This document shows positions 35,276 to 62,356 of a stretch of 64,000 nucleotides of DNA, in pieces; position 1 is the first letter of the stretch, and every line of letters begins with the position of its first letter. The DNA is taken from the NCBI GenBank assembly GCA_963705305.1, contig OY970067.1, forward strand, positions 5,536,001 to 5,600,000, given 5' to 3'. The notes under the pieces were generated by a model, which did not search any database, was not told the origin of the DNA, and saw nothing but the letters and a program-made list of their open reading frames with translations. The stretch is from an uncultured Methylomirabilota bacterium (GTDB taxonomy: Bacteria > Methylomirabilota > Methylomirabilia > Methylomirabilales > 2-02-FULL-66-22). Both the position numbers and the translations under genes were made by a program.

Positions 35276-37558
35276 TCAACGCGGCGGCGATTCGCTGTCC
35301 CATTCGCCTCGCGGCGGGTCCCCGCCTTCCGCCGAGTGAAAGAAGGGGCGGAACTTCTCTGCCAGCTCGACCAGCTTGGCTTTGTAGTACTCCACGTTCT
35401 CGTCGGGCGCCTCGGGACTCCACTCGCTGGCCAGCCGGGCGGCCTCGTGCACCTTGACCCGCTTGGACGTCCCCGTGACATAGTAGGAGATCTGGTCGCC
35501 CGGCTGGTACGGGCGCTTGGCCCGGAGGGCCAGCTCGTACGCCGCCGCCGGGTTGCGCCGGCTGCCGCGGAGCTTGTCCCGATAGGTGTCCAGGGAGTCC
35601 TGGAGCGTCTCCGTCTTCATGAAGGTGCGGACGTTGAAGGCGTGCCGTTCGAAGGCCTCGGCGTAGCGCCGGGTGAGATCCGGAATCTTGTGCGGCTCGC
35701 CCGTCAGGAGAAGGCGGAACATCTCCTCCATCCACTCCCGCTGGAACAGCTCCAGTCCCCGGGACCGCAGGCCCGACCCCTTGATGGAGAGCCGGCCGTC
35801 GTAATCCAGCAGCGCGTAATTCTTCATCTTGTAGCTGAACATGGCCCGGTAGCGGCCGTCCAGCTCCAGGCTGATCCCTTCGGGCAGGATCGTCCCCAGC
35901 TCGCGGAGCAGCCGCTCCTCGTCCTCGGCTGTCTCCACGCCCGGCGGCGCCACGAAGTAGAGGCCGTCCGTATCCGCCTCGACCAGGCGCGCCCCGCGCT
36001 CCTGCAGCCAGGCCATGACGGCCTGGATCAGCTCCCGCCCCTTGGCCGTGACCAGGTTGGCCGCCGCATAGTCGTTGAAGTGTCCCAGCGGGAAGCCGAG
36101 ATAGCCGTAGAAGGAGTTGATGAGGATCTTGAAAGTGATCTGGAGGGCGTCATAGTGGGCGCGGGCCTCCTCCGTCTCCGCCGCCCGCAGGAGCTGCTTG
36201 GCCTCCACCCGGAACCGGCGCAGGTCCGCCAGCAGGCAGCGGAAGACGCCCAGGCTGTCCCGCCGGGGAAAATAGCCGAAGGCCAGCATCACCGAAGGGT
36301 ACAGGGACGTGACGTCGCAGTGGAGAATCCGCCGGGCCACCCCCTGGTAGGCGATCTCGGTGTGGCCGCCCAGCACCTCCTGCGGCGGCTCCGGCGCGGG
36401 AATGGCCCGCCGCTGACGCAGGTACTCCCGGATCGCCAGCGCGTCGATCTTGGTGGCGTTTCCCCGCAGCGCCACGTTCTGGTAGGAGAAGGGGAAGATC
36501 TGGGCCTGGACGAAGTAGCTCTGGCTCAGGATCGCACTGAGGGCCCGGGTTTCGCGCACGTCGTCCAGGGCGTACCGGAACAGCCGCTCCGGATCGTGAT
36601 CGAACGTCCAGGCGATCTTCTCCGGCGGAAGGTAGGTGCGGTCGGGCGCGGCCAGCCCGAAATGCCGGGCGATTTCCTTCAGGCCGAAGCTCTCCAGCTC
36701 CCGCGCGGTCACGTCGTAGTGCTGGGCCAGAATCCAGGTGTCGATGATGTGCCGCCCCTGGATCTCGTATTTCGTGTAGGTGATGGACCGCTCGGCGATC
36801 TGCATCCGCGAGGGGTGCCCCCTGAGCGCCGATCCGTCCCGGCCCAGGGTCAACGCCACCTTGTGCCTTCTGGCCCGCGCGGCGATGTAGTCCAAGTCGA
36901 AGCGGAACAGGTTGTGGCCCTCCAGGACGTCCGGATCCCGCTCCCGCACCAGGCGGACCATCTCCCGCAGCATGGCCGGCTCGTCCAGGACCGCCCCGGA
37001 GATGACGTGCTCCCACCCCGTGCTGTCGGCCAGCGCGATGGCGATGATGCGGTCCTCGGAGCGGGCCGCGTTGGAGAAGTCGTACCCGGCCGCGCAGTAG
37101 GTCTCGATGTCGAGCTGCATCCGGTGCAAGGCTGAGAAGGGCAGCTCGAGGAAATGCGTCTGCCCGGTGAGGAGCAAGTCTTGCTGGATGGGGTCGGAAA
37201 AGAACAGGTAGGGGGCATCGGGGGCCGACTGGGCCCTGCCGCTGGCCCCCTGGAGGTGGGCGCGGGCCTTCAGCGCATCTTCCCATCCCCGAAACAGCAC
37301 CAGGAAGCGATACCACCCCTCACCCGCCAGCTCCTCCACCTCGCAGCCGCCCGACCAGCCGGACAGGAGCTCCGTGCTGGCCAGGAGCAGGAACGGCCGA
37401 AAGGGGCGAACGGAGGAGGTGATGCCGCCGCCCGCGGGGGTCCGGGAGAACACCCGGATCCGATCGTTCCCCTCCAGCTCGAAGGCCAGCAGGCCGGGGG
37501 TCGGATCGTGGCCGAACAACGCGGCGTTGGTATGAAAGGCGGGCGCCTGAAGCGTCAT
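35276..37558 (-). CDS. polB: Family B DNA polymerase with 3'-5' exonuclease domain
   Basis: Exo motifs LDIET, GHNLFRFD, YALDD; polymerase motifs DVTSLYPS, KILINSFYG, ADTDG. Confidence 0.9.
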   Translation of the reverse strand: MTLQAPAFHTNAALFGHDPTPGLLAFELEGNDRIRVFSRTPAGGGITSSVRPFRPFLLLASTELLSGWSGGCEVEELAGEGWYRFLVLFRGWEDALKARAHLQGASGRAQSAPDAPYLFFSDPIQQDLLLTGQTHFLELPFSALHRMQLDIETYCAAGYDFSNAARSEDRIIAIALADSTGWEHVISGAVLDEPAMLREMVRLVRERDPDVLEGHNLFRFDLDYIAARARRHKVALTLGRDGSALRGHPSRMQIAERSITYTKYEIQGRHIIDTWILAQHYDVTARELESFGLKEIARHFGLAAPDRTYLPPEKIAWTFDHDPERLFRYALDDVRETRALSAILSQSYFVQAQIFPFSYQNVALRGNATKIDALAIREYLRQRRAIPAPEPPQEVLGGHTEIAYQGVARRILHCDVTSLYPSVMLAFGYFPRRDSLGVFRCLLADLRRFRVEAKQLLRAAETEEARAHYDALQITFKILINSFYGYLGFPLGHFNDYAAANLVTAKGRELIQAVMAWLQERGARLVEADTDGLYFVAPPGVETAEDEERLLRELGTILPEGISLELDGRYRAMFSYKMKNYALLDYDGRLSIKGSGLRSRGLELFQREWMEEMFRLLLTGEPHKIPDLTRRYAEAFERHAFNVRTFMKTETLQDSLDTYRDKLRGSRRNPAAAYELALRAKRPYQPGDQISYYVTGTSKRVKVHEAARLASEWSPEAPDENVEYYKAKLVELAEKFRPFFHSAEGGDPPRGEWDSESPPR

Positions 37559-37696
37559 GCTACACGGGATCCGTTGCCAGGAGATCTGCGACTCTTCCCC
37601 GGCGGGCGTCCGGGGGCCGACGATGGCGGGCACCCGCTCCGCCCCCGGGTCCATGCCGACCGGACCATCCAGCCTTGGAATTTCGCCCCGACCGGC

Positions 37697-39509: not shown

Positions 39510-40364
39510 TCAACGCGGCGATTCTTGGTGCCTTGGCGGTGGGGGCTGAAGATCCGGGCGGCGGCTGGCGTCGCCGCGATCCGGTCCGAACACGCCGGTC
39601 CGGCCGGCCACCACCGCCATCGCCCGCTGCCAGCTGGAGCGCTCGTGCCCCCACGCTTCGCGGGCAAACCGATAGTCGAATTTCCGGATGAACTCATCCA
39701 GCTCCCCCACCAGCTCCCCCCATCTCGCATTATGCCACGCGCTGAGGCGGGGAAAGTTGGGATGGCTCTTCCCCAGCCAGACCGCGGCATCCATGTGAGG
39801 CAGGCAGAGGCCTTCGGAGTGCGAGAAGGCGTCGCGGAACTCGGGGTGATCGAGGAAGTCCAGGACCGTCCGCAGCGCCCGGCGCTCGCCCCGGACGGCG
39901 GACACGCACAAGGGACATCTGGTCTTCGCGCGCGGCAGGGAGGCCGACCTGGCGAGGCCGAGGCGGGCCGCCAGGCGGGAGGAGAGCTTCCGGCCGGGGC
40001 TTTGCCCCCGGACGGTCCGGTCGCATTCCCCCAGCCACGTGCGCGCCGCCTCCAGCACGCTCCGGTACAGGATCGCCGTTCCCAGGGCAGGGTGCTCGAT
40101 TCGGGCCAGGAGCCACGTGTGCCAGTTGCACAATCCGCCGGACGCCACCAGGCGGGCCCGCATCTCGGGGTCGTTGACCTCCTCCCCTATCAGCTCGTTC
40201 AGGGCTCGGAGCGCTCCGTCCTCCAGGACCGTGCAGACCGGACAGCCGGATTTTCCGCACGCCTCGAGCAGTTGGAAGTATCCGACGAACTTGGACGGGC
40301 GGCCGGGCCGCCGTCCACCCTCTGCCGCTGGCTCGTTTCCCGCCGGAGCGGACCCTCGACCCAT
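39510..40364 (-). CDS. DUF6062-like Cys/His-rich protein
   Basis: CPVC..LCNWH and CPLC..LCLPH repeats; FIRKFDYRF..E..SW. Confidence 0.7.
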   Translation of the reverse strand: MGRGSAPAGNEPAAEGGRRPGRPSKFVGYFQLLEACGKSGCPVCTVLEDGALRALNELIGEEVNDPEMRARLVASGGLCNWHTWLLARIEHPALGTAILYRSVLEAARTWLGECDRTVRGQSPGRKLSSRLAARLGLARSASLPRAKTRCPLCVSAVRGERRALRTVLDFLDHPEFRDAFSHSEGLCLPHMDAAVWLGKSHPNFPRLSAWHNARWGELVGELDEFIRKFDYRFAREAWGHERSSWQRAMAVVAGRTGVFGPDRGDASRRPDLQPPPPRHQESPR

Positions 40365-49222: not shown

Positions 49223-49433
49223 GGTGGATTGCGACGTGTCCACGGGGTTACCAGTCAATCGCATCCGTCGAGGGCGCTTCAAACGACGGGATGAGCGCCT
49301 GCCGCACCTCCGCCCGACGCTCCCGGGGCGCCGCTGGCATGCCGGCGGGACAGCTCGCGTGCGGCTCCGCAGGGCTTTCGGCTTCCGGAAAGTCAGCGCA
49401 GCAAACAACGCCCCCCGTCTTGTGGCGGGCAGA

Positions 49434-49643
49434 TTATCGCCGCCGGGAGGGCTGCCAGACGTACTCGCTCGCTTTCATGCGGAGGCTGCGCGGGGGGAGA
49501 CACCCGGGGTCGCTTCGCGTCACGATCACCTGGCACCACTCCCCCTCCAGCAAGGCGTGCAGGTAGGTGTGGGTCCCATTCCGCTCGCCACGCCAGCGGG
49601 TCACCCGTCCCACATTGTCGCGTGTGATGACGACGACGTTCAT
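49434..49643 (-). CDS. Small hypothetical protein (69 aa)
   Basis: AGGGG RBS + ATG; protein-like beta-rich sequence; divergent from the riboswitch promoter. Confidence 0.5.
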   Translation of the reverse strand: MNVVVITRDNVGRVTRWRGERNGTHTYLHALLEGEWCQVIVTRSDPGCLPPRSLRMKASEYVWQPSRRR

Positions 49644-49833
49644 GTCCCCTGCAGGTCCACGAAATAAGCCCTCGGCCATCGGAGTTCAGCCTGGGGCCTC
49701 ACCTTCTTGCACCAAGCCGAAGCCTTGGTCGAAGGATACAACAAGAAGGCCTGTGGGACGAGGCTGGAGTTCCACCTCTTCTTTTGTCGACTTGCCGAGG
49801 ACGCCCTGAGCCGAACGGCGCGAGAAGAAGCGC

Positions 49834-49862
49834 TTGACTCGGTTGGATTCATGAAGGAAAAT
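49834..49862 (+). promoter_or_regulatory. Putative sigma70 promoter for riboswitch 1
   Basis: TTGACT-17nt-GAAAAT, 13 nt before the aptamer. Confidence 0.45.
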
Positions 49863-49875
49863 ACACCAAAGAAAT

Positions 49876-49923
49876 GGCGATGGAGTTCGCGGGTCCCCGT
49901 CTGCGCGGGGTGATAACTCCTAC
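49876..49923 (+). promoter_or_regulatory. Fluoride (crcB-motif) riboswitch 1
   Basis: GGCGATGGAGTTCGC...CCCC/GGGG stem...TGATAACTCCTAC; P1 GCGA/TCGC; pseudoknot GGAGT/ACTCC. Confidence 0.88.
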
Positions 49924-49951
49924 TGGCAAAGCCAGTGGGGGTTTTTTATTT
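49917..49951 (+). terminator. Riboswitch 1 expression-platform terminator
   Basis: CTCCTACTGGC-AAA-GCCAGTGGGGG + TTTTTTATTT; 5' arm overlaps the pseudoknot strand. Confidence 0.85.
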
Positions 49952-50111
49952 CGGGGGTTTGACGGCAATTGCCATCGCCTCCCTCCAGACCGCAGGGCGC
50001 GAGGAGGACCGGTGGGCCGTGGCCGCCGGGGGTTCCGCCCCGCCGGACTACCGACCGCCGACTCCGGCCGAGAATCCGACGCCCGTGGACGCCTGAGCCG
50101 GGAGTCGCACT

Positions 50112-50525
50112 GTGCAGCGCAAGCAGCCGACGGTCCGCGATTTGAACAGTCTCGGCGTCCATTTCTACAGCGTCGAGGCCTATGACCTGGCCATCGTTCA
50201 GCTCGAGCAGGCGACCCGCCTGGCGCCGGACGTGGCCTCCATTCACTTCAACCTGGGGGGCGCCTACTACGGGAAGGGGCGTATCGAGGACGCGGAGCGC
50301 GAGTTCCAGGAGGCGCTTGATCTCGACCCCGGCCACGCGCGCGCCCACTGGTTCCACGGCCTCTGCCTGGAGCGGATGGCCCGTCTGGGCGAAGCCCTGG
50401 CGGAATTCCACTGGGTGCGGGAGCATTCGCCGGGGACTCGCGAGGCACGATCCGCTCTCGAGGAGATCCAGGCCATCGCCGCCCTTTCCGGACGGGAAGG
50501 CCGCGGGGCCTCCCTTACCGGATAG
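50112..50525 (+). CDS. TPR protein
   Basis: Three TPR-like repeats (LNSLGV, HFNLGGAY, HWFHGLCL). Confidence 0.85.
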   Translation: MQRKQPTVRDLNSLGVHFYSVEAYDLAIVQLEQATRLAPDVASIHFNLGGAYYGKGRIEDAEREFQEALDLDPGHARAHWFHGLCLERMARLGEALAEFHWVREHSPGTREARSALEEIQAIAALSGREGRGASLTG

Positions 50526-50527
50526 CC

Positions 50528-51109
50528 ATGAAGACGGACACTCCTTCATCTCCGACGACTCTGGAACGGGCCGGGTCCGTCCATCCGGATGGATCCCGGT
50601 TGCCGGCGGGGTCTTCGAGCCCGACCCTGAATTCTGAGAGCGTTTCCGGCGCTCTCAACGCCGCCCAAGTCCGCGCGGTGGCGGCCGCGCTCCGAACGTT
50701 GGAGTACGCACTGGATGAGGTCGAGCGCCTGCTGGCCTCGACCACTTCAGGGGTCACGATCCGCTGGCGAGTCGACCTGACCGTCGAGGAGCACCGCCTC
50801 CTCCGGCAACTCACGGCCCAACTCCGGGGGCGGCTGGCCGTCGCCTGCCTCGACCTGGGAATCGGCGCCGACGAACGGTCTGTTCGAGGCGCGATCCGGG
50901 GAACCCTGGCGGTCCTATGGGCCACACTCGAGGACAGTCGGGCAGTGAGTCTCCGCAGCTACGGTCCGCTTCCGGCCGGGGCGGGCTTGGGCCTGGATGC
51001 GACGATGGCGGCGCTCGCGGCGGACGTTGGCCGGATCCTTCGGATAGTGGAAGGAACGGAAGCAGGAGCGCGGGGCCGAGACCGGGGTGCCGCCGGCGCG
51101 GAGGCCTGA
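50528..51109 (+). CDS. Hypothetical helical protein
   Basis: Coupled ORF; LWATLEDSRAVSLRSYGPL motif. Confidence 0.7.
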   Translation: MKTDTPSSPTTLERAGSVHPDGSRLPAGSSSPTLNSESVSGALNAAQVRAVAAALRTLEYALDEVERLLASTTSGVTIRWRVDLTVEEHRLLRQLTAQLRGRLAVACLDLGIGADERSVRGAIRGTLAVLWATLEDSRAVSLRSYGPLPAGAGLGLDATMAALAADVGRILRIVEGTEAGARGRDRGAAGAEA

Positions 51110-51113
51110 GGAG

Positions 51114-51908
51114 ATGGACTTCGGAACCTTCGACGGCTTCTGGCATAGGCTCGCCCGGACGCGTCTGCACATGCCCGAGGTGTCGGACCTCGAGGCTGTC
51201 CTGGGACAGGCGATGGGCGCGTGGCGAAGCTGCGTGGTTTGCAACCTTCTCTGGGAGCGGGCCTTTGACCTGACCTCGCGCTGGCAGCAGCTCCTCGCTT
51301 CTGACGCCGCCGCCCAGGCGGACTTCCTGTGCGGGCAGACTTGGTGCAACCGGCATGCCTGGTTCTTCAGCCAGATGATGGCCCCGGTGTCCCAGGCGCG
51401 CTTGCAGCGCCGACTGCACGAGGAGGTGGCGGCCCGGATTCGGGAGCACCTCCAGTCCATCCCGGAGCGTCCGATGGGCGGGGACGCCCGCACGATTCTT
51501 GAATCGCTCATCGGCAGGCGTACCTGTCCCCTGTGCGACGACGAGTCCGCCTTGCTGACGCTGGTCCTGGCCGCGATAGTGCGCGGCCTGACCGCGGGAT
51601 CGCTCCGGCCGGCCTTCGCCGCATCCGCCGGCTGCTGTCTCCCCCATCTGGCCGCCCTGCTGTCCCGCGTCGCCCACAGCGACACCGCCCGTTTCCTGTT
51701 GGAGGCGACCCAGGATCGCCTGGCACGGCTGACGGCGGAGTTGGACTACTACCAGGCGGAGAGCGAAAGCCGGCGGCGGCGGTACGAATCGGCCGCCGAC
51801 GCCCCGGCCCGGGCCCTAGCCGCCTGGGCGGGCCTGCGGGACATGGTGCGGGATTGGGAGGGGACACCGACCGAGTCCCGCCCGCAGCCGGAAGGAGTTA
51901 CGCCGTGA
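51114..51908 (+). CDS. DUF6062-like Cys/His-rich protein
   Basis: CVVC..WCNRH and CPLC..CCLPH; same architecture as 39510-40364; GAGGAG RBS. Confidence 0.7.
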   Translation: MDFGTFDGFWHRLARTRLHMPEVSDLEAVLGQAMGAWRSCVVCNLLWERAFDLTSRWQQLLASDAAAQADFLCGQTWCNRHAWFFSQMMAPVSQARLQRRLHEEVAARIREHLQSIPERPMGGDARTILESLIGRRTCPLCDDESALLTLVLAAIVRGLTAGSLRPAFAASAGCCLPHLAALLSRVAHSDTARFLLEATQDRLARLTAELDYYQAESESRRRRYESAADAPARALAAWAGLRDMVRDWEGTPTESRPQPEGVTP

Positions 51909-51990
51909 CCGCTCCGCTCGAACCAAACAGGGGGCGGTGGGCAGCCGACGAAGCCCTCGCTTCCGCTGATGTCCCCCACGGGATGCGACG

Positions 51991-53247
51991 ATGAACGATC
52001 TCAACGGGAAGGCCGCTGTCGTCTCATCGGTTCCGGCCGATGACCGGTGGTTGAATCGCAATGTCGCGGGGATGGGGATCACCAGCCTGCTGAGCGATTG
52101 GGGACACGAGATGGCCACGGCAATCCTCCCCGGGTTTCTGGCCGCCATCGGCGCTCCGGCCGCGGCCCTGGGCGTCATCGAAGGGGTGGCCGACGCCGTG
52201 TCCAGCTTCGTGAAACTCGGCGCCGGATGGTACACGGATCGGATCGGCCACCGGAAGGTCATCTGCGTAGGCGGTTATTTCCTGACGGGGGTCTCGCAGG
52301 CCATCTTTGCGTTTGCATACAGCTGGCCGCTGGTGCTCGCCGGCCGGACCCTCGGCTGGCTCGGTCGGGGCGTCCGCAGCCCTCTGCGGGACGCCATCCT
52401 GGCGGAGTCCGCGTCCGAGGAGGCGCGTGGGAAGGCCTTCGGCTTTCACCGGGCGGGCGACACGCTGGGCGCTGTTATTGGACCTCTCTGCGCCGTGGGG
52501 CTTCTGGCCCTGCTCCAGGGGCACGCCACCGGCGATCCCTCGTCACCCTTTCGTCTGGTATTCCTCCTGACCATCATCCCGGGTGTCGGATCGGCCCTGG
52601 CCTTCGGCACGGCGGTCCGCGAGCGGCGGCGCGCCCCGAACCGCGGGGTCCGGCTCTGGGCTACGATCCGTAGCCTGCCCCGGGCCTATCGGCGCTGGCT
52701 GGCGGGGGTGGGGATCTTCGGCATCGGGGACTTCGCGCACACCCTGATGATCCTGGCGGCCACGGAACTCCTCACCCCGGCGTACGGCGTGGTGGCGGCG
52801 GCCCAGATGGCTGCCCTGTTCTATGTGGTGCGGAATGTCCTGTACGCCGCCGCCTCTTACCCGATCGGCGCCTTGAGCGACCGCCTGGGTCGCCTCGGGA
52901 TCCTGGTGCTCGGGTATGTCGTCGGCTCCCTGACGGCCGCCGGCCTCGTGGCCGCCTTCGCCTTCTCCTGGCGCCACCCCGTCTACCTTCTCGGGCTCTT
53001 CTGCCTGGGCGGAATCTACATCGCGGCCGAGGATGCCCTGGAGGGCGCCATGACCGCCGACTTCGTCCCTGCCGCGGAATGGCGGGGGATCGCGTACGGG
53101 GTGCTGGGGACGGTCAACGGCGTCGGGGACCTGGCGGCCAGCGTGATCGTCGGCGTCCTCTGGACGGCGGTCTCGCCGGTCCTCGCATTCGCCTATGCGG
53201 CGGCGGCAATGGGCGCGGGCGCCCTGGTTGTCGCCCGCCCGTGCTGA
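51991..53247 (+). CDS. MFS transporter
   Basis: SLLSDWGHEM, GVIEG.AD, GRGVRSPLRD, GKAFGFHRAGDTLGA, G.LSDRLGR. Confidence 0.9.
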   Translation: MNDLNGKAAVVSSVPADDRWLNRNVAGMGITSLLSDWGHEMATAILPGFLAAIGAPAAALGVIEGVADAVSSFVKLGAGWYTDRIGHRKVICVGGYFLTGVSQAIFAFAYSWPLVLAGRTLGWLGRGVRSPLRDAILAESASEEARGKAFGFHRAGDTLGAVIGPLCAVGLLALLQGHATGDPSSPFRLVFLLTIIPGVGSALAFGTAVRERRRAPNRGVRLWATIRSLPRAYRRWLAGVGIFGIGDFAHTLMILAATELLTPAYGVVAAAQMAALFYVVRNVLYAAASYPIGALSDRLGRLGILVLGYVVGSLTAAGLVAAFAFSWRHPVYLLGLFCLGGIYIAAEDALEGAMTADFVPAAEWRGIAYGVLGTVNGVGDLAASVIVGVLWTAVSPVLAFAYAAAAMGAGALVVARPC

Positions 53248-53255
53248 GGACTGCG

Positions 53256-54269
53256 ATGCGCCTGGAAAATCTGGCGGCGGGATTGGACGATCTCTCGCGC
53301 AACCGGGAGGCGCTCGCCCTGTTGATCCTGCAGGGCGAACGGGCGGTCCCGGCCCTGGCGCGGATGCTCCTGGGGCCGCCCTCCTCTATCCCGGAGGCGC
53401 GCTGTCTCGCCGCGGAGGGCCTCGGATCGATCGGAGGGGAGGCGGCCGTCAGCGCCCTGATCCGGGTCCTCAGCCTGCACGATCCCCGACGGCTCGACCC
53501 GGTCCTCCGCCTGGCGGAGGAGGCGGTACAGAACCGGGCCGCAGAGCAGCTCGGCAGGATGGGAGACCGGCGGGCCGTCGAGCCGCTGCTGTACGGTCTG
53601 GCACAGGACGGGCTCCGCGAGGCGATGGGCGCGCTGGCCAGGCTCCGGGAGCCGCGGGCCATCCCCCACATCGTTCGGCGCCTGGAAGATCCGTGCGACC
53701 GCGCGGCAGCCGCGGACGCGCTGCTGGCATTCGGCAGCACGGCGGTTCCGGCCCTGACGGCGACACTGACCGAGCAGCACCCCTCTTCCGAGGATGAATC
53801 GCCCATGAGCGCGGAGCGACGCGCCGAGGCCGCACGCCTTCTCGGTACGCTGGGAGCTTCGCAGGCCCTGGAGGCGCTCCGGTCCCGCCTCGATGATCCG
53901 GCTGCGGCTGTCCGGCTCGAGGCCGGCCTCGCACTGGCGGCCCTCACCGGTGGCGACACACCCGATCGGGCGCTGGCGGTCATCGCACAGGGGCTGAACC
54001 ATCCTGGCCCACCGACGGCCCTGCGGTGCATGGACGCAGCTGTCGAGGCCGCCGACCGGAGTATTCCCCATCTCCTTTCTGTCGCTCCACCGAGACGGAC
54101 CGCGGCAGTCGGTCCGCGCCGTCCGGGGGATGATGCGCTCCAGGTGAGCGTGATCGAGACCTTGGAGCGGATCGGCTCGGAAGCAAGCACACGGGCTATC
54201 GAGGAATTCCTTCACGACCGGAGCCCCCTCGTGCGCGAGCGAGCACAGCGGGCGCTGCGGCATCCTTGA
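53256..54269 (+). CDS. HEAT/PBS-lyase repeat protein
   Basis: Repeated AAE.LG..G...AV..L units. Confidence 0.85.
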   Translation: MRLENLAAGLDDLSRNREALALLILQGERAVPALARMLLGPPSSIPEARCLAAEGLGSIGGEAAVSALIRVLSLHDPRRLDPVLRLAEEAVQNRAAEQLGRMGDRRAVEPLLYGLAQDGLREAMGALARLREPRAIPHIVRRLEDPCDRAAAADALLAFGSTAVPALTATLTEQHPSSEDESPMSAERRAEAARLLGTLGASQALEALRSRLDDPAAAVRLEAGLALAALTGGDTPDRALAVIAQGLNHPGPPTALRCMDAAVEAADRSIPHLLSVAPPRRTAAVGPRRPGDDALQVSVIETLERIGSEASTRAIEEFLHDRSPLVRERAQRALRHP

Positions 54270-54287
54270 AGGAGAGATAGGCTCCCC

Positions 54288-55823
54288 ATGGCTTTCCACA
54301 GCATACTCTTCAAACGGGCCGAGGACACGCCAACGCAGGACACAATCCAGCCGCCGGTCTTCTGCGTTGACTTGAATCTTGATCAGATCATAAACGCCGT
54401 CACCGCCGGCAGGCAGGAATACAACCTGAAGCCGTATTTCTACACTCCCTTGAGGCAGAAGGACGCGATTGCCTACCGGCATGAAGTATTCCGGGATCTC
54501 GAAGATCCACACCTGCTCGAGAGCGTCGAGTCGTTCGCCCGGAGCATGCGGGTCATGCGCGACCATCTCGCCCAGGCGGAAAAGCTTTATTACACGTATC
54601 AGAAGGAACGCTGGTTCCTGGAGGCGGTGGAGATCTATTGTGACGCGGTGAACCGCCTGATGCAGGAGCTTGCGCTGGTCGACCTGAAATCGCGAGGTTT
54701 TCTGGGCTTCCGGGATTACCTGGCAACGTACGCCCGGTCCGAGGGTTTTACCGCCCTCCTGGCGGACACGAAACAGCTCCTGGCCGACCTGTCTTCCATC
54801 CGCTACTCTCTGATCATCAAGGGGACGTCCGTCACGGTCTGGAAATACGAATCGGAATCCGACTACAGCGTAGACGTTGAGCGGACCTTCGAAAAATTCA
54901 AGCAGGGGGCACCCAAGGACTACCGGGCGAAATTTTCCAGCTCGCCGCAGATGAATCATGTGGAGGCGGCGATTCTGGATCTGCTCGCCAAGCTGTATCC
55001 CGACATCTTCCGACATCTTGACGTGTACTGCGCGAAGAACGCCGAGTATCTGGACGCAACGCTCGCCACCTTCGACCGTGAAGTGGAGTTCTACCTGGCC
55101 TACCTGGCGCATCGCGGCATCTTCACCCGAGCGGGATTGCCGTTTTGCTACCCGGAAGTCTCCGACTCCTCCAAGGACGTCTATGAGCACGAGGGGTTCG
55201 ATCTGGCGCTGGCCGACAAGCTCGTCAAGGAAAAGGCCTCCGTTGTCTGCAACGACTTCTACCTGAAAGACAAGGAGCGCATCCTCGTCGTCACGGGTCC
55301 GAACCAGGGCGGGAAGACCACTTTCGCCCGCGCCTTCGGCCAGCTGCATTTCCTGGCCAGCATCGGCTGCCCGGTGCCGGGCAGGGAGGCGCAGCTCTTT
55401 TTGTTCGACAGGCTCTTTACCCATTTCGAAAAAGAAGAGGACATCCGAAATCTCCGGGGCAAGATGGAAGATGACCTGATCAGGATTTCCGAGATTCTGG
55501 CCCAGGCAACCTCGAACAGCATCGTCATCCTGAACGAGAGCTTCACGGCGACGACGTTGAGCGATGCGATCTTCTTGAGCACTCGAATCCTGGAACGAAT
55601 CCTCCAGCTCGACCTGCTGTGCGTCTGCGTGACCTTCATCGATGAATTGGCGTCGTTGAGCGAGAAGACCGTCAGCGTGGTCGCGGGGGTCGCGCCCGAC
55701 AATCCGGCAGTGCGGACGTACCGAATCATGCGACGGCCCGCGGACGGCGTGGCGTACGCACTGTCTATCGCCGAGAAGTACCGGCTCACGTACGAGTCCG
55801 TCAAGGAGCGCATCCGGCCATGA
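54288..55823 (+). CDS. MutS-related ATPase (domain V only), copy A
   Basis: TGPNQGGKTT, FTHFEKEED, ILNESF.AT; no mismatch-binding domain I. Confidence 0.88.
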   Translation: MAFHSILFKRAEDTPTQDTIQPPVFCVDLNLDQIINAVTAGRQEYNLKPYFYTPLRQKDAIAYRHEVFRDLEDPHLLESVESFARSMRVMRDHLAQAEKLYYTYQKERWFLEAVEIYCDAVNRLMQELALVDLKSRGFLGFRDYLATYARSEGFTALLADTKQLLADLSSIRYSLIIKGTSVTVWKYESESDYSVDVERTFEKFKQGAPKDYRAKFSSSPQMNHVEAAILDLLAKLYPDIFRHLDVYCAKNAEYLDATLATFDREVEFYLAYLAHRGIFTRAGLPFCYPEVSDSSKDVYEHEGFDLALADKLVKEKASVVCNDFYLKDKERILVVTGPNQGGKTTFARAFGQLHFLASIGCPVPGREAQLFLFDRLFTHFEKEEDIRNLRGKMEDDLIRISEILAQATSNSIVILNESFTATTLSDAIFLSTRILERILQLDLLCVCVTFIDELASLSEKTVSVVAGVAPDNPAVRTYRIMRRPADGVAYALSIAEKYRLTYESVKERIRP

Positions 55824-57322
55824 AGGCGTTTCTCATGTTTCGGGATCGCGATTTCGACCTCCAGGAGGCATTGCCTTGGAACGAGCAGGCCTTGACCCAG
55901 GATCTCGAGCTGGGGACGCTGTTCGATGCCATAGCCTGCCAGGACAAGCTGATCTGGGAGGTGGTCCGAAGGGCCATGCTACGGGGCGTGGAGGACGTGG
56001 ATACCATCCTGTACCGTCAGGATATCCTCAAGGACTGCCTGAACGATCCTTCCGTGGTCCGGACGATGTATGCGATCGCCGGGGAGGCGATTGACGCCGA
56101 GCGGAAGGTGTGGTGGAGCTTTTTCCGAAATTCCCCGTCCGCGCTCCTGCACCGGTCGATCGAGGTCCTGACGCTGCTCGTCCGCGCGCTGAAGCAGCTG
56201 AGAAGTATCGCCGATGCGCACGCCCACACCTGTACTTCCGCCGGCCTGACGCGGTTGTTCAGGATGCTCGCCGCCGAGCTGGAGGACGAGTACTTCGCCC
56301 GCGTGGAGAGCCATCTGGGGGAGCTGAGCTTTCGGGACGGGGCGCTCATCAGCGCGGAATTGGGGCAGGGGAACAAAGGGACCGATTACCGGCTGCGGAA
56401 GCAGCCGGAAAAGAAGAAGCAGACCTGGATGGGGCGACTCTTCGGACCAAAACCGCTCGCCTACACCTATCACATCCCCGAGCGCGACGACAGCGGCCCG
56501 AGGTATCTCTCCGAGCTGCAGGACCGGGGCATCAACCTCGCCGCGAACGCGGTGGGCCAGTCGGCGGATCACATTCTCAGCTTCTTCGCCATGCTGCGCA
56601 CCGAGCTGGCCTTCTACGTCGGCTGTGTGAACTTGCACGAGCACCTGGTCCGATTGGGCCAGCCAACCTGCTTTCCCGTGCCCGTGCCCTCCGGCAAGCG
56701 GAGCCACTCGTACACGGAATTGTACGACGTGTGTCTCGCGCTCAGCATGGGGCGGAGCGTGGTGGGGAATGACGGGACCGCCGACGACAGAGAGCTCGTG
56801 ATGATCACGGGCGCGAACCAGGGCGGAAAATCGACATTTTTGCGGAGCATCGGAATCGCCCAGCTGATGATGCAGTGCGGGCTGTTTGCGCCGGCGGATG
56901 CCTTCTGTGCGAACATCTGCACGGGCCTGTTCACGCACTACAAGCGGGAAGAGGACACGACCATGCAGAGCGGAAAATTCGATGAAGAGCTCAGCCGGAT
57001 GAGCGAGATCGTAGAGCATCTGAGGCCCGACGCCATGCTGTTGTTCAACGAATCGTTCGCGGCGACAAACGAGCGGGAAGGCTCGGAGATCGCCCGGCAG
57101 ATCGTGAGCGCCTTGCTGGAGCGGCGCATCAAGGTCTTCTTCGTGACCCACCTGTACGACCTTGCCCACCGGTTTTTCGCCAAGAGCATGGAGAGCGCCC
57201 TCTTTCTGCGCGCGGAGCGGCAGGCCGACGGAACGCGAACCTTCAAGTTGACCGAGGGCGAGCCGCTCGAGACCAGCCATGGCGAGGACCTGTATGTGCG
57301 CATATTCGGAGGCGCCAATTGA
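55820..57322 (+). CDS. MutS-related ATPase (domain V only), copy B
   Basis: TGANQGGKSTF, FTHYKREED, LFNESFAATN, VTH, SHG; ATGA overlap with copy A. Confidence 0.88.
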   Translation: MKAFLMFRDRDFDLQEALPWNEQALTQDLELGTLFDAIACQDKLIWEVVRRAMLRGVEDVDTILYRQDILKDCLNDPSVVRTMYAIAGEAIDAERKVWWSFFRNSPSALLHRSIEVLTLLVRALKQLRSIADAHAHTCTSAGLTRLFRMLAAELEDEYFARVESHLGELSFRDGALISAELGQGNKGTDYRLRKQPEKKKQTWMGRLFGPKPLAYTYHIPERDDSGPRYLSELQDRGINLAANAVGQSADHILSFFAMLRTELAFYVGCVNLHEHLVRLGQPTCFPVPVPSGKRSHSYTELYDVCLALSMGRSVVGNDGTADDRELVMITGANQGGKSTFLRSIGIAQLMMQCGLFAPADAFCANICTGLFTHYKREEDTTMQSGKFDEELSRMSEIVEHLRPDAMLLFNESFAATNEREGSEIARQIVSALLERRIKVFFVTHLYDLAHRFFAKSMESALFLRAERQADGTRTFKLTEGEPLETSHGEDLYVRIFGGAN

Positions 57323-57427: not shown

Positions 57428-58384
57428 ATGCCCCACATCGGGACGATCACCATGCGGAAAGGAGCCGGTAAGTGTCCGGCGCTCGGCTGGGTCGCCGTCG
57501 CAGCGGGGGGGCTGCTCTTGGCCCTCGTGGCCGCGCAGGGTTCGGGTGGGCAGGCGAGCGGCCGACCCGCAGTGCGCCTGGTGGTGTCTATCCCAACGCC
57601 ACTCGAGGCGGCGATCTTCGGGCTCTTTGGCTTGGCCGCCCTCTTCGTCCTGTGGCTGCTGATGCCCCGACATCTCCGACATGGAAAGAAAGACCCGGAT
57701 GCCATCGAGATGGTCTACGAGAACCCGAAGATCTCGCCCTGGTTCACCGTCGGCATGCTGGTCCTGAGCGCCGCGCCCTTGGCGCTGGTGGGGTATCTCC
57801 TCTGGCGCGGGTGGCCGCCCTTTGAGAAGGGGGTCGCTCGCGTCTCCCTTGCGGCCGGATTTTCCGCTCCCGGGGCTCCCCTCCACCAAGGGAGCGTCGT
57901 GCCATATGCGTCGGAGCCATGGTTCAGCGGCGTGGTCACGGTTCTGGCACTGGTGGTGGGAGCGGGGTGTCTGGCGGCGACCCTCTGGATCCTCTTCGGC
58001 GATCGCCTGATCGGGACGTGGAAAGGCCTGACGCCCCGGACCTCCGAGCCGCTGCTGGAGGCGATCGACGACAGCCTGGAGACCCTCCGACAAGAGTCGG
58101 ATGCCCGCCGGGCGATCATCCGGTGCTATCGGCACTTCGAGCATGCCCTGACCCGACGGGGACTGCCGCGCGATCCCTGGGAAACCCCGACAGAGTTCAT
58201 GCGGAAAGCCTTGGGCCGCCTCCCGCTCCCGCCGGAGATCGTGAAGGGTCTCATCGACCTGTTTCACCTGGCGCGCTTCAGCGATCACCCATTGGGGCCG
58301 AGGGAGCGCAACGTCGCAGTGGACTCGCTGGTGGAAATCCGCACTGCACTGGAAGGGGAGACGGCCCATGCTTCCGCCGTCTGA
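57428..58384 (+). CDS. DUF4129-like membrane protein
   Basis: TM segments followed by DARRAIIRCY..E, ETPTEF, LF.LARFS; start may be 57452. Confidence 0.75.
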   Translation: MPHIGTITMRKGAGKCPALGWVAVAAGGLLLALVAAQGSGGQASGRPAVRLVVSIPTPLEAAIFGLFGLAALFVLWLLMPRHLRHGKKDPDAIEMVYENPKISPWFTVGMLVLSAAPLALVGYLLWRGWPPFEKGVARVSLAAGFSAPGAPLHQGSVVPYASEPWFSGVVTVLALVVGAGCLAATLWILFGDRLIGTWKGLTPRTSEPLLEAIDDSLETLRQESDARRAIIRCYRHFEHALTRRGLPRDPWETPTEFMRKALGRLPLPPEIVKGLIDLFHLARFSDHPLGPRERNVAVDSLVEIRTALEGETAHASAV

Positions 58385-58850
58385 TCCGCGCTGGTGGAGA
58401 TTCTTTCTGGGGTACCTCCTCTTCGCTGGGCTGCTAGCCCTGGCCCTGACGCCCCTCTATTTCTTGGCGGAGCCTACGCACCGACCGCTGGTCGTCCGCC
58501 TTGGCGCCACCCTGCTTGCCGTGAGCGTCTTGGTCCACCTCCGACGGTTCGTCCGGGCGGCGATCACGTCGCAACCCGCCTCGGCCTTCGACCGGGCGCT
58601 CCGGCCGCTGCCGCCCGAGCGCCACATCGCACCTCTCTTCCTGAAGCTCCGGAACGAGCTGCGGTTCAGCAGAGCCGATTTCGGGTACTTCCAGCGAAAC
58701 CTCTGGCCTCGGATCCTCCGTTTGTCGCGGAGGCGGGTCGGGGGCTCCCTGTCAAAGGCGCCTGAGATGCCGCGGGGAGGATTCTTCCGGCGGGGGCCGT
58801 CGCTGGCTGCCTTTCGCCAGCTTATCTCGCAGATCGAGGAGCGTCCATGA
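58368..58850 (+). CDS. Hypothetical membrane protein of the MoxR module
   Basis: Two TM helices; overlaps both neighbours. Confidence 0.7.
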   Translation: MLPPSDPRWWRFFLGYLLFAGLLALALTPLYFLAEPTHRPLVVRLGATLLAVSVLVHLRRFVRAAITSQPASAFDRALRPLPPERHIAPLFLKLRNELRFSRADFGYFQRNLWPRILRLSRRRVGGSLSKAPEMPRGGFFRRGPSLAAFRQLISQIEERP

Positions 58851-59803
58851 AGCTGGAAATGGTGGCCGATCGCTGCCGGGAGATCCTGGCAACTCTCTCC
58901 CGGGTGATCGTCGGCAAGGAGGCGGTACTCCAGCGGATCCTGGCGGGAATCCTGTGCAACGGGCACGTCCTGATCGAGGACTACCCCGGCCTGGCCAAGA
59001 CCCTCATCGCGCAGCTCTTCGCCCAGACGTTGGATCTCGGCTTCAAGCGCATCCAGTTCACCCCGGACCTCTTACCGAGCGACATCACCGGCAGCTTCCT
59101 CTACGACCAGCGTCAGGGGCAATTCGAGTTCCGGCGAGGGCCTATCTTCACGAATCTGCTCCTGGCGGATGAGATTAACCGGGCCACCCCCAAGACGCAG
59201 GCCGCCATGCTGGAGGCGATGCAAGAGGCCCAGGTGACTGTGGAGGGGGAACTCTTCGCTCTGGAGCCGCCATTCCTGGTGATCGCCACCCAGAATCCGA
59301 TCGAGCTGGAGGGGACCTATCCCCTCCCCGAGGCGCAGGTGGACCGGTTCCTCCTGCGACTGGCCGTGGGGTATCCGACCCCTGAGGAGGAGCGGGAGAT
59401 CCTCGTGCGGCGCCGCGAGCGGCGGACGGATGCTGCGTCCGTCCCCCGTGTGATCTCCCGAGCGGAGATCCTGGCCATGCAGGCCGCGCTGGAGGAGGTC
59501 TTCGTGAGTGAGGCCATCGAGCGCTACATCGTGGACCTAGTCCAGGCCACACGGGGCGACGCCCGGGTGGCGCTCGGCGCCTCGCCGCGGGGGGCACTGG
59601 CGCTCCTCAAGCTGGCCCGGGCCGAGGCGGTTCTGGCGCGGCGGAACTTCGTGATCCCGGATGATGTGAAGGGGATGGCGGTCCCAGCTCTGGCCCACCG
59701 GCTCATCCTCAAGCCCGAGCTATGGGTGCGCAAGATCTCGGCGGAGCAAGTCCTCACCGATCTACTGGCAGAGGTACCGGCTCCTGCCACGGAGAGCCGA
59801 TGA
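58847..59803 (+). CDS. MoxR family AAA+ ATPase
   Basis: PGLAKT, RIQFTPDLLPSD, ADEINRA, ATQNPIE.EGTYPLPEAQ.DRF, SPRG. Confidence 0.93.
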   Translation: MKLEMVADRCREILATLSRVIVGKEAVLQRILAGILCNGHVLIEDYPGLAKTLIAQLFAQTLDLGFKRIQFTPDLLPSDITGSFLYDQRQGQFEFRRGPIFTNLLLADEINRATPKTQAAMLEAMQEAQVTVEGELFALEPPFLVIATQNPIELEGTYPLPEAQVDRFLLRLAVGYPTPEEEREILVRRRERRTDAASVPRVISRAEILAMQAALEEVFVSEAIERYIVDLVQATRGDARVALGASPRGALALLKLARAEAVLARRNFVIPDDVKGMAVPALAHRLILKPELWVRKISAEQVLTDLLAEVPAPATESR

Positions 59804-61077
59804 TTAGGCGGATTCCCCCCCTGGCGCTTTCCCTACTCACGCTCTGCGGGGTGACCCTGATCCTTGGCCTTCTTTCCGGCCGGTCAGAGCTGTTCCTGGT
59901 GGCCCTCCCCCTGGTGGCATCCCTCTGCCGAGCAGCCATGGCGACCGAGGTCCCTGAGTACGGCGTGACGCACGAAATCTCGCAGGAGCGGCTCTTCGAG
60001 GGCGATACGCTTCGCGTGACGGTGACCCTCACGGCCCGTTCCCAGACCCCCCTCCTGGAGCTGTGTGAGTCGATTCCCCCCGGGACCGCCCTCGCCGCGG
60101 GGAGCAACCGGGCTCTGTTCAGCCTGCGCCCCGGCCAGCAGGTCCGGTGGAGCTACGGCCTCCGGTGTCTGCGGAGGGGTCGGTTCCAGGTCGGACCCCT
60201 GTATGCGCGGGCCTGGGGATGCTCGGGGCTGGAAACGGCCGAGGGAGAACACGCGGACGCGACCCCGGTGCGAGTTTACCCGCACTCCCTTCCCCTCCGC
60301 GCCCTGCCCCAGCCTCGCCGCACGCAGACCTCGGTGGGAAACTACGTGTCGCCGGTCTTAGGGGAGGGGCTGGAGCCAGGGGAGGTCCGGCCCTTCGCCC
60401 CCGGCGACCGGGTGAAGCACGTGAACTGGCGAGCCTCACTTCGGCTCGGCCGGCTCTACGTCACCCAGTGTCACCAGGAGCGGAACGCCGATGTCGTCCT
60501 GATGCTGGATACGCTCGGGCATGCGGGCCTTTCGCCCAGGAGCAGCCTCGACCTGTGCGCGCGGGCGGCGGCCTCGCTGGCCGGGGCCTACCTGTCGCGG
60601 AAAGACCGGGTGGGCCTCATCGAGTACGGCGGGGTGCTCCGCTGGGTGCGCCCGGGATCGGGGCGGGTCCAGCTCGAGCGGATCCTAGAGGCATTGCTGG
60701 CCGCGGAGGTGATCTTCACTTACGTGGCCAAGGATCTCACCCTGGTGCCGCCGCGGATCCTGCCGCCCCAGGCGCTCGTCCTGGCGCTGAGTCCGCTCCT
60801 GGACGACCGGTTCGTCACGGCGGTGCGGGATCTCGCCGCCCGCGGGTTCGATGTGGTGGTGGTGTGGGTCTCGCCGGTGGCCCTGTCCCGCGAGCTGCTC
60901 TCCGGATCGCTTCTGGACGATCTGGCCTGTCGCCTGTGGACCCTGGAAAGTGAGGAGCAGCTTGCCGCGCTACGCCAAGAGGGCCTCACGATCATCGAGT
61001 GGCACCCCGATCAGCCGCTGGAGCTGGCGCTCAGCCCCTTCGCACGCCATCGTCGGCCGAGGGCGCTGGTAGGATGA
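59800..61077 (+). CDS. DUF58 (vWA-like) protein
   Basis: VRPFAPGD..K.VNWRAS, DRVGL; follows MoxR. Confidence 0.88.
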   Translation: MIRRIPPLALSLLTLCGVTLILGLLSGRSELFLVALPLVASLCRAAMATEVPEYGVTHEISQERLFEGDTLRVTVTLTARSQTPLLELCESIPPGTALAAGSNRALFSLRPGQQVRWSYGLRCLRRGRFQVGPLYARAWGCSGLETAEGEHADATPVRVYPHSLPLRALPQPRRTQTSVGNYVSPVLGEGLEPGEVRPFAPGDRVKHVNWRASLRLGRLYVTQCHQERNADVVLMLDTLGHAGLSPRSSLDLCARAAASLAGAYLSRKDRVGLIEYGGVLRWVRPGSGRVQLERILEALLAAEVIFTYVAKDLTLVPPRILPPQALVLALSPLLDDRFVTAVRDLAARGFDVVVVWVSPVALSRELLSGSLLDDLACRLWTLESEEQLAALRQEGLTIIEWHPDQPLELALSPFARHRRPRALVG

Positions 61078-62043: not shown

Positions 62044-62072
62044 TTGACGGGCTGGCGACATAGTGCTAGATT
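62044..62072 (+). promoter_or_regulatory. sigma70 promoter for riboswitch 2
   Basis: TTGACG-17nt-TAGATT with extended -10 TG; predicted start about 62079 coincides with the aptamer start. Confidence 0.7.
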
Positions 62073-62078
62073 TATTTT

Positions 62079-62125
62079 GGCGACGGAGTCTGCCTAGGCG
62101 CTGATCCGGCGATGATGACTCCTAC
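62079..62125 (+). promoter_or_regulatory. Fluoride (crcB-motif) riboswitch 2
   Basis: GGCGACGGAGTCTGCC...TGATGACTCCTAC; P1 GGCG/TGCC; pseudoknot GGAGTC/GACTCC; competing stem CTCCTACCGGAG/CTTCGGGAGGGG. Confidence 0.82.
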
Positions 62126-62356
62126 CGGAGTGTAGCCAGCTTCGGGAGGGGTTCTCGGATGTTCACGACGCGACTAGCGGCGATCGACCACCCCCCAGAA
62201 CCTCTGTCTTATGTCTTATAGCCCCCCTATCACGATCCCGGGTCTAGAACTATCTTCCGACAAGTTCGGGAGAAGGAGGACCACTCCCTTCTGGCGAGGC
62301 CGCCCCAGCCGCGCTTTCCCTCGTTTGGCACCGTGAGACGGGCGCTCTTTGGACTT

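Follow-up and report, generated by a model that had tools for sequence, protein, structure and literature searches.

The window analyzed here is a stretch of 64,000 nucleotides (nt) from an uncultured Methylomirabilota bacterium (GenBank assembly GCA_963705305.1, contig OY970067.1, positions 5,536,001 to 5,600,000 of the forward strand). Our subject is a unit on its + strand, at 49834–57322, in which a leader resembling a fluoride riboswitch precedes seven co-oriented genes, the last two of which code for a pair of MutS-like ATPases. Its parts, all on the + strand and given in window coordinates, are:

49834–49862, +: promoter-like -35/-10 pair, TTGACT-17-GAAAAT, ending 5 nt before the aptamer match
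49867–49929, +: fluoride aptamer (crcB motif, RF01734), a lineage variant in which P1 has 3 bp and the P1–P2 linker is short
49915–49952, +: intrinsic terminator, a 13-pair stem (49915–49943) followed by TTTTTTATTT
50112–50525, +: TPR protein of 137 amino acids (aa); Pfam TPR_16 and others
50528–51109, +: helical protein, a divergent member of the u157 family by hhalign
51114–51908, +: DUF6062 protein (weak PF19538 match), 51114 being the probable start; the long frame opens at 51087
51991–53247, +: MFS transporter of a tightly conserved subfamily (MFS_1, 98.7 bits)
53256–54269, +: HEAT-repeat protein of the PBS-lyase type (HEAT_2, 82.3 bits; HEAT_PBS), in a frame from 53079
54288–55823, +: MutS4A-type ATPase with lever, clamp and ATPase regions (MutS_V), hereafter MutSa
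55820–57322, +: MutS4B-type ATPase (MutS_V), hereafter MutSb

Pfam labels confirm the seven closely spaced, co-oriented genes of a preliminary description made from the sequence alone, with two starts shifted: the probable start of the DUF6062 protein is 51114, since Met10 is where its orthologs begin to align, and that of the HEAT protein is 53256, the first (internal) methionine past the MFS stop. The RF01734 match and our reading of the leader likewise bear out the promoter, the crcB-motif aptamer and the overlapping intrinsic terminator with the pseudoknot strand in its 5′ arm. The match spans the full model (1–64 of 64). P1 is formed by GCG (49877–49879) pairing with CGC (49888–49890), i.e., three of the four pairs of the model, with a G·G mismatch at the outer fourth position; P2 comprises CCCCG (49895–49899) and CGGGG (49906–49910), giving 5–6 pairs, and the pseudoknot joins GGAG (49882–49885) to CUCC (49917–49920). 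The P1 loop contains GAUGGAGUU, and the 3′ tail of the aptamer is UGAUAACUCCUAC. The core is kept, with GAUGGAGUUC standing for GAUGGxGUUC in the P1 loop and UGAUAACUCCUAC for UGAUxACUCCUAC on the 3′ side, and its columns are invariant or nearly so in an alignment of 27 aptamers as well as in 13 sequences from the genus. The P1–P2 linker is about 4 nt long and lacks the usual AAC, and the GAUAAC variant is frequent in an alignment with 23 clear aptamers of other phyla. The pseudoknot strand CUCC doubles as part of the terminator 5′ arm, an overlap that supports the earlier proposal of a transcriptional ON-type fluoride switch. The 96-nt leader folds at -39.2 kcal/mol (z = -3.4 versus shuffles). 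A scan of 49400–50400 found no promoter-like site besides 49834–49862 (shuffle mean 0.0), and the + strand shows none from the terminator up to the start of the first gene (49951–50112), where the preliminary description had allowed for an independent promoter driving the genes.

The search with RF01734 that had been proposed as a check gave a divided answer. At the gathering threshold the whole window returned zero matches against Rfam; under permissive filters, which the aptamer needs, the full-model match appears at 26.1 bits. The gathering score of 34 bits is a curated cut-off and not a structural feature, and the match has an E-value of 3.2e-5 in a 451-base search and of 9.5e-5 across the whole 5.6-Mb genome. 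Genome-wide, RF01734 finds four matches, all within 25 kb and all on the + strand, each a few bases 3′ of its own promoter-like site. The three others are:

window 62070–62131, +: second aptamer (24.0 bits, under the cut-off), in a unit from 62044 that runs past the window end; precedes small open reading frames (ORFs) and an AAA ATPase
L009 4587–4649, genome 5600587, outside the window, +: third aptamer (38.6 bits, above threshold); heads enolase and a formate-hydrogenlyase-like/Mrp-like seven-gene complex
L009 14706–14766, genome 5610706, outside the window, +: fourth aptamer (57.4 bits, above threshold); heads a dynamin-like GTPase and a Na/Pi cotransporter with a PhoU domain

As a side observation, the AAA ATPase domain after the second aptamer is split over two overlapping frames (L009 3152–4129 and 3906–4499, i.e., window 63152 onward), pointing to a pseudogene, a frameshift or an error in sequencing.

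When 40 relatives were searched at the DNA level, the aptamer and terminator stretch turned up in genomes of the same genus, and orthologs were located in 12 of the 20 other genomes of the genus. All 13 sequences, that of the target included, have a P1 of 3 bp and a short linker in common and preserve the pseudoknot, the terminator and all core nucleotides, with positions that are either invariant or show one-sided changes only. The aptamer pair cells are 93.9% paired, as compared to 44–61% when the partners are slid; those of the terminator are 99.4% paired against 31–60%, and the pseudoknot GGAG:CUCC is paired in 100% of its cells. Three points weigh against a functional aptamer. The nine orthologs scored with RF01734 fall below the Rfam cut-off as the target does, at 22.4–33.5 bits. 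The genus alignment holds zero double compensatory changes in aptamer or terminator, so that its pairing support is one of conservation and not of covariation. Finally, a custom covariance model scores the target at 47.9 bits, a value that, like those of its orthologs, is not independent because the target is among the seeds of the model. On such grounds, together with the G·G in place of the fourth P1 pair and the linker without AAC, one could regard the aptamer as a decayed, non-functional relic in front of an operon that is constitutive or otherwise controlled. However, the same lineage-specific P1 and linker recur throughout the genus alongside an unchanged core, the genome-wide E-value is low, and the element is clustered with two above-threshold aptamers and with enolase, the formate-hydrogenlyase-like complex and the dynamin-like GTPase. 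We therefore consider a relic highly improbable; the leader is, to judge from these features, very likely a working fluoride switch.

The association of such switches with mutS-like genes, which the preliminary description gave as reported yet unexplained, is indeed on record: the available text of Weinberg 2010 (PMC2864571) counts mutS among the genes of the crcB motif and notes overlapping terminators, and that of Sherlock and Breaker 2020 (PMC7266159) repeats “DNA repair proteins” among the associations. The link between fluoride riboswitches and “mutS” has thus been in print since 2010, with no explanation yet. The pair itself has a name. Lin, Nei and Ma in 2007 (PMC2190696) described MutS4A and MutS4B, in the accessible part of their report, as neighboring genes in which the stop of A and the start of B overlap, with a patchy distribution, and as unstudied. 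By these described features, the pair examined here belongs to the published MutS4A/MutS4B. The locus is one more, well-formed instance of a puzzle that recurs and has been published, and not a new system. Our literature search, whose coverage mostly leaves out subscription journals, returned no functional study of MutS4, and among the matches listed none gave a fluoride role to any MutS paralog.

Full-length homologs of MutSa are 66–80% identical among the best 120 of 7996 matches, mostly at a length of 511 aa, and their source labels include Moorella, Thermoanaerobacteraceae, Syntrophobacteraceae, Chloroflexi and Thermodesulfobacteriota. Overall, homologs occur in more than 10 phyla with 53–80% identity across the full 511 aa. 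In a scan with each species represented by a single genome, 447 MutSa stretches were confirmed, of which the best 80 loci, with labels again spanning more than 10 phyla, were analyzed. MutSa and MutSb are adjacent in 78 of these, the other two loci stopping within about 440 bases past MutSa. The custom covariance model, built from 27 aptamers, was searched against 1.39 Mb of sequence, made up of the 80 loci, the window and L009; it gave 133 matches at E < 1e-3, distributed over 58 of the 80 pair loci, and no match in the 64-kb window outside the fluoride island. An aptamer precedes MutSa on its strand by no more than 500 nt in 41 of the 80 loci, and in 14 more it is found only farther upstream. 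Rows with E-values from 1e-3 to 1 were left out, several of which also lie directly upstream of MutSa. RF01734, applied at its gathering score to six loci, found 17 of their 21 custom matches again, including the weakest aptamers upstream of MutSa in L058, L062 and L071, and recovered one further aptamer that the custom cut-off had excluded. Among the loci examined, the MutS4 pair stands behind fluoride aptamers more often than does CrcB.

The company kept by the pair was surveyed by clustering the ORFs (90 aa or longer) of the 80 loci and the target island; clusters present in at least five loci were kept and their representatives named by Pfam, and those that mostly overlapped members of a larger cluster were dropped. 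The most frequent neighbor of the pair is enolase (38 of 81 loci). The other recurrent families are CrcB (27), an MFS cluster that includes the target MFS (25), a dynamin-like GTPase (24), CBS-DUF190 (19), USP (17), His_Phos_1 (16), u157 (14), an ABC ATPase and a zinc-ribbon-HEAT protein (13 each), a Na/H exchanger, DUF6062 and HEAT (12 each), a P-type ATPase (11), and MoxR and DUF58 (7 each). In a crude test for position on the same strand downstream of an aptamer, the proportions are 12/14 for HEAT, 12/16 for DUF6062, 105/156 for MutS4, 12/28 for CrcB, 18/38 for enolase, 11/26 for the MFS cluster and 3/15 for u157. Nucleotide hydrolases of the HIT and NUDIX families are also recurrent in fluoride islands, and in L089, L041, L018 and L020 a zinc-ribbon-HEAT protein, HEAT, (MFS), AAA_16, DUF6062, an unnamed 144-aa protein and a HIT hydrolase follow or face the MutS4 pair. 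Genes 2–5 of the target unit (u157, DUF6062, MFS and HEAT) thus belong to families that recur in the fluoride islands of other phyla. The TPR gene, by contrast, is the sole gene of the unit that does not recur across phyla, having no match in the 80 loci; its orthologs in relatives from the genus are 62–75% identical.

Within the genus, the orthologous aptamer heads units of different composition. In G019 its unit reads Dyn-DUF6062-NaH-USP-?-Metallophos-TPR-DUF6062-u157-?-DUF6062-DUF6062-DUF6062-MFS(81%)-HEAT(79%), where the contig ends; in G009 it reads ?-Metallophos-TPR-DUF6062-u157-DUF6062-HEAT-NUDIX-MFS(31%)-enolase-DUF4129-ORF-MoxR-DUF58, with no MutS pair in between. MutSa occurs in two of the 21 genomes of the genus (the target genome G000 and G009), in copies that are 63% identical, lower than the identity to homologs from other phyla. 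Because of this restriction to 2/21 genomes we regard the MutS4 pair as mobile, a cassette inserted into a lineage-specific unit. These patterns bear directly on the proposal of the preliminary description that the seven products form a single multi-component fluoride-response system, i.e., an integrated machine and possibly a physical complex. Its appeal is easily seen: the genes sit tightly spaced and co-oriented behind a single switch, of the seven families, six are recurrent in fluoride islands, orders such as MutS4A-MutS4B-HEATzr-HEAT-MFS-AAA16-DUF6062 are repeated in L089 and L041, and HEAT-MFS fusions occur. Yet in many loci (for example, L040, L056, L072 and L079) the pair has its own aptamer and no other clustered partner, gene order and content vary in nearly all loci, the target MFS is confined to 3/21 genomes of the genus as the pair is to 2/21, and the G009 unit retains TPR, u157, DUF6062 and HEAT without the pair between them. 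Hence, we find a single machine quite unlikely, and as far as gene content can tell the unit is a mosaic of separable modules. Of the joint action once posited for the whole set, only that of MFS with HEAT has gained evidence, in the form of fused homologs.

MutS_V is the lone Pfam match in MutSa and in MutSb, and the two proteins share 30% identity restricted to the ATPase half. The AlphaFold2 model of MutSa (predicted local distance difference test score, pLDDT, 79.3; predicted template-modeling score, pTM, 0.81) has as its top Foldseek matches MutSbeta, the B. subtilis MutS2-collided disome and E. coli MutS, with E-values of about 1e-13, alignments of about 500–580 columns and TM scores of 0.5–0.6 normalized to the query. 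The matching begins at the lever domain. These fold matches indicate that the lever and clamp are kept while domains I/II and the nuclease are missing. Consistently, the pair has no Pfam match to the Smr nuclease domain, and both proteins end soon after the ATPase domain. MutS domain I (PF01624) was found neither in the two proteins nor anywhere else in the genome, which is 98.9% complete and a single contig; besides the pair, its sole other MutS_V frame codes for 849 aa, at 2730312. This organism may lack canonical mismatch recognition, and because the genome has no detectable MutS domain I a link of the pair to mismatch repair is unlikely; that role was rejected. A phage-defense role was also considered and rejected, every mapped context being a fluoride island.

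In MutSa, the Walker-B D-E of Msh3 is matched by N416-E417. In an alignment of 80 MutSa rows, the Walker A motif, the N-E pair and a phenylalanine at the position of the “TH” histidine are each present in 80/80, and the residue preceding that phenylalanine is T in 74 and S in 6. Among 73 MutSb rows, the Walker A glycine and lysine are found in 73/73, the asparagine in 71/73, the glutamate in 73/73 and the T-H dyad in 73/73. What is new here, at the level of the alignments, is that both ATPases have an asparagine in place of the Walker-B aspartate and that MutS4A lacks the catalytic histidine, which MutS4B retains. New as well, and described below, are the fusion of HEAT to some homologs of the target MFS, the two CxxC...CxxH sites of DUF6062 and the finding of CrcB in a single one of the 20 other genomes of the genus. 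The D693N change in MutS disturbs Mg coordination. For the D693N mutant of E. coli MutS a structure exists, 3k0s. The clamp tips are conserved and basic in both proteins, with the signatures TFEKFKQGxxK in MutSa and R-K...K-K-Q-x-W in MutSb.

These features also bear on the possibility that MutS4A/B is an ATP-driven protein remodeler or reactivase, rescuing metalloenzymes poisoned by fluoride (enolase or pyrophosphatase, for instance), and does not act on nucleic acids. The best NCBIfam match of MutSb is KamC, the reactivase ATPase of lysine 5,6-aminomutase, and candidate clients are at hand: enolase is encoded in 38 of the 81 loci, and phosphoglycerate-mutase-type and pyrophosphatase genes are recurrent. 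However, the KamC score (73.3 bits, with a cut-off of 300 and MutS2 at 67.5) is indistinguishable from generic MutS_V similarity, the retained lever and clamp resemble, along most of their length, MutS proteins bound to DNA or to ribosomes, and the basic residues of the clamp tips are under conservation. A reactivase function is in our estimate unlikely.

Among the remaining genes of the unit, gene 2 (50528–51109) has no Pfam or NCBIfam match, and the atlas search gave unnamed clusters only, at 0.90; its alignment with the u157 family nevertheless reaches an hhalign probability of 99.5% (E = 2.7e-22, 140 columns). The DUF6062 gene scores 23.0 bits with PF19538, under the gathering score of 27, while 30 of its 30 atlas matches are DUF6062 clusters (top score 0.95), and the protein aligns with family members that score 45–83 bits. 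Eight residues are invariant in 19/19 members, namely C49, C52, C87 and H90 followed by C147, C150, C184 and H187, which amounts to a duplicated CxxC...CxxH module. The predicted structure is all-helical (pLDDT 83.3). A Foldseek search of the model against the PDB returned nothing at E ≤ 0.001, and the best hit of a wide VIA-align search was a fragment of a cohesin subunit (Z 6.0, root-mean-square deviation 3.1, 84 residues), in a range common for helical models. DUF6062 is probably a metal-binding helical protein with two Cys3His sites. The family is strongly expanded in fluoride islands: L037 has four tandem DUF6062 genes, and one riboswitch-headed unit of G019 (L103, G019:C56, 2433–12543) has five paralogs, one of them within a 612-aa frame. 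Another DUF6062 gene of the window (39510–40364, - strand, 75 bits) lies 10 kb upstream of the unit next to an ABC transporter of the branched-chain amino-acid type, with no aptamer near.

Homologs of the target MFS that are 61–87% identical to it carry labels of NC10/Methylomirabilales, Chloroflexota and Bipolaricaulota metagenome-assembled genomes, and share an invariant WLNRNV near the N-terminus together with many invariant arginines and aspartates. The wider MFS cluster is heterogeneous, at 18–53% identity to the target. Two homologs (P0198 and P0218, 566 aa) show a fusion of an N-terminal HEAT_2/HEAT_PBS domain (residues 37–121) to the MFS domain; this HEAT domain has weak similarity to the HEAT protein of gene 5 (E = 0.016). 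MFS-HEAT adjacency recurs across loci and among the genus relatives. Because of the fused homologs and the repeated adjacency, we consider it probable that the MFS transporter and a cytoplasmic HEAT protein act together. A complex prediction for MFS with HEAT scored 0.00 against a mark of 0.32, was made without control runs and is counted neither way.

The operon lacks crcB, as the preliminary description had it, and the absence extends further: the CRCB domain (PF02537) has zero matches in the operon and in the entire genome, in a search whose control found the domain in 11 of 14 reference genomes. CrcB was found in just one of the 20 other genomes of the genus (G010), as against four of five genomes from one other family of the order, although RF01734 matches at E ≤ 0.001 occur in 11 of those 20. 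In G010 an above-threshold aptamer of 54.2 bits stands directly upstream of CrcB (G010:C7:2236–2659), and the CRCB match there comes in two adjoining pieces (profile positions 1–65 and 65–102), as if frameshifted. The target genome encodes four CLCs, none of which adjoins an aptamer. In such a setting MFS-HEAT could be a third kind of fluoride exporter that replaces CrcB in a lineage where the latter is nearly never found. The MFS is the lone transporter of the unit, its subfamily is strongly constrained, and a precedent for a non-canonical transporter is offered by BenE-I, which, according to the accessible text of its description, confers fluoride tolerance in Pseudomonas putida lacking crcB (PMC13104614). 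Against this, MFS proteins of the wider cluster co-occur with CrcB in 10 mapped loci, and a CLC route is possible, since the shortest CLC, of 469 aa, scores nearly equally against the fluoride-type 6d0j (69.1 bits) and the chloride-type 1kpl (75.2 bits). Further, with only 3/21 genus genomes encoding it, the target MFS cannot be the general export answer of the genus, and its candidacy as a genus-wide CrcB substitute is weakened. An exporter role replacing CrcB thus appears to us very unlikely.

The unit probably does not end with MutSb but runs on past 57322 as one transcript through four further genes, each a probable continuation:

57428–58384, +: DUF4129 membrane protein
58368–58850, +: 160-aa ORF
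58847–59803, +: MoxR AAA+
59722–61077, +: DUF58

A scan of the + strand for terminator-like sites found none between one internal to the MFS gene (52797) and 58385, and before 61515 just weak or intragenic ones. In G006 and G009, too, the unit runs on into a DUF4129-ORF-MoxR-DUF58 block of the same orientation. Elsewhere in the window, and unrelated to the unit, a family B DNA polymerase gene of 792 aa adjoins an M20 peptidase (35276–37654, - strand).

Taken together, we interpret the unit as an accessory stress operon that fluoride induces; it is one of the four units headed by riboswitches in the 25-kb island, its genes are recurrent modules, and we assign this reading a probability of roughly 80%. 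Without fluoride, the terminator would form and transcription would end near 49950; with fluoride, the pseudoknot would capture the CUCC strand, blocking the terminator and letting RNA polymerase continue into the genes, as the behavior of this riboswitch class predicts. The operon so induced would include MutS4A/MutS4B as a horizontally mobile, translationally coupled pair, putatively assembling into an asymmetric heterodimeric MutS-type clamp in which both subunits keep the lever, the clamp and the ABC-type ATPase and neither has a mismatch-recognition or nuclease domain. We tentatively suggest, at somewhat less than even odds, that this is a slow ATP-switch clamp on nucleic acid, acting either on duplex or branched DNA or, as for MutS2, on a stalled ribosome. 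The altered Mg site of the pair may suit a cell loaded with metal-fluoride complexes. Several considerations count against parts of this picture: 22 of the 80 pair loci have no aptamer at E < 1e-3; the evidence for nucleic acid as the substrate consists of fold retention and the basic clamp tips; it is we who infer a fluoride rationale for the Walker-B asparagine; and the probable extension beyond 57322 draws on a crude terminator scan and synteny.

A bolder version, which we deem unlikely, would have a fluoride-adapted MutS4A/B clamp ATPase deployed on DNA or stalled ribosomes and MFS-HEAT providing an undescribed export route in the absence of CrcB. Were it true, the change of the Walker-B aspartate to asparagine and the loss of the MutS4A histidine would yield an ATP switch immune to trapping by ADP-metal-fluoride complexes, and the pair would work when ordinary P-loop machines are fluoride-poisoned. 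In any event, the locus offers experimental handles in the Mg-site change, the division of labor between the subunits, the MFS-HEAT fusions and the Cys3His family, in a genus that carries fluoride switches, with CrcB found in a single one of its 20 other genomes.

In comparison with known systems, the leader resembles the transcriptional ON type of RF01734, as portrayed in the available text of PMC2864571 and PMC7266159, in having the same core nucleotides, P2 and GGAG:CUCC pseudoknot, a terminator that shares the pseudoknot strand and a position upstream of fluoride-regulon genes. It departs from the RF01734 norm in its score of 26.1 bits (versus 34), its three-pair P1 and its linker of about 4 nt without AAC, peculiarities that are common to the 12 orthologs from the same genus. 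Known fluoride-resistance operons and islands, to which the FRM operon of E. cloacae (PMC5533749) belongs, combine crcB, eriC-F, enolase, pyrophosphatase, USP, Na+/H+ antiporter and formate-hydrogenlyase-like genes. The island shares with them the enolase, the formate-hydrogenlyase-like/Mrp-like complex and the dynamin-like GTPase behind sister aptamers, and the same families surround the MutS4 pair in the fluoride islands of other phyla; unlike those known islands, the target genome has neither CrcB nor an aptamer-linked CLC. MutS2 acts in ribosome rescue. The B. subtilis protein, seen on collided ribosomes (7qv3; E = 8.5e-14), is also devoid of a mismatch-recognition domain and has the same lever-clamp-ATPase layout, but the pair here lacks an Smr or KOW region, has N-E in place of D-E at Walker B and, unlike the homodimeric MutS2, is a putative heterodimer of two paralogs. 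Like MutS4A/B, in so far as the accessible text of PMC2190696 characterizes them, the genes here are two diverged paralogs with the MutS ATPase as the sole recognized Pfam domain, they are adjacent with a stop/start overlap at 55820–55823, and common to both is a patchy spread over distant phyla that is suggestive of transfer. Set beside that account, the fluoride link, the Walker-B asparagine and the loss of the histidine from the A subunit are observations on the pair described here.

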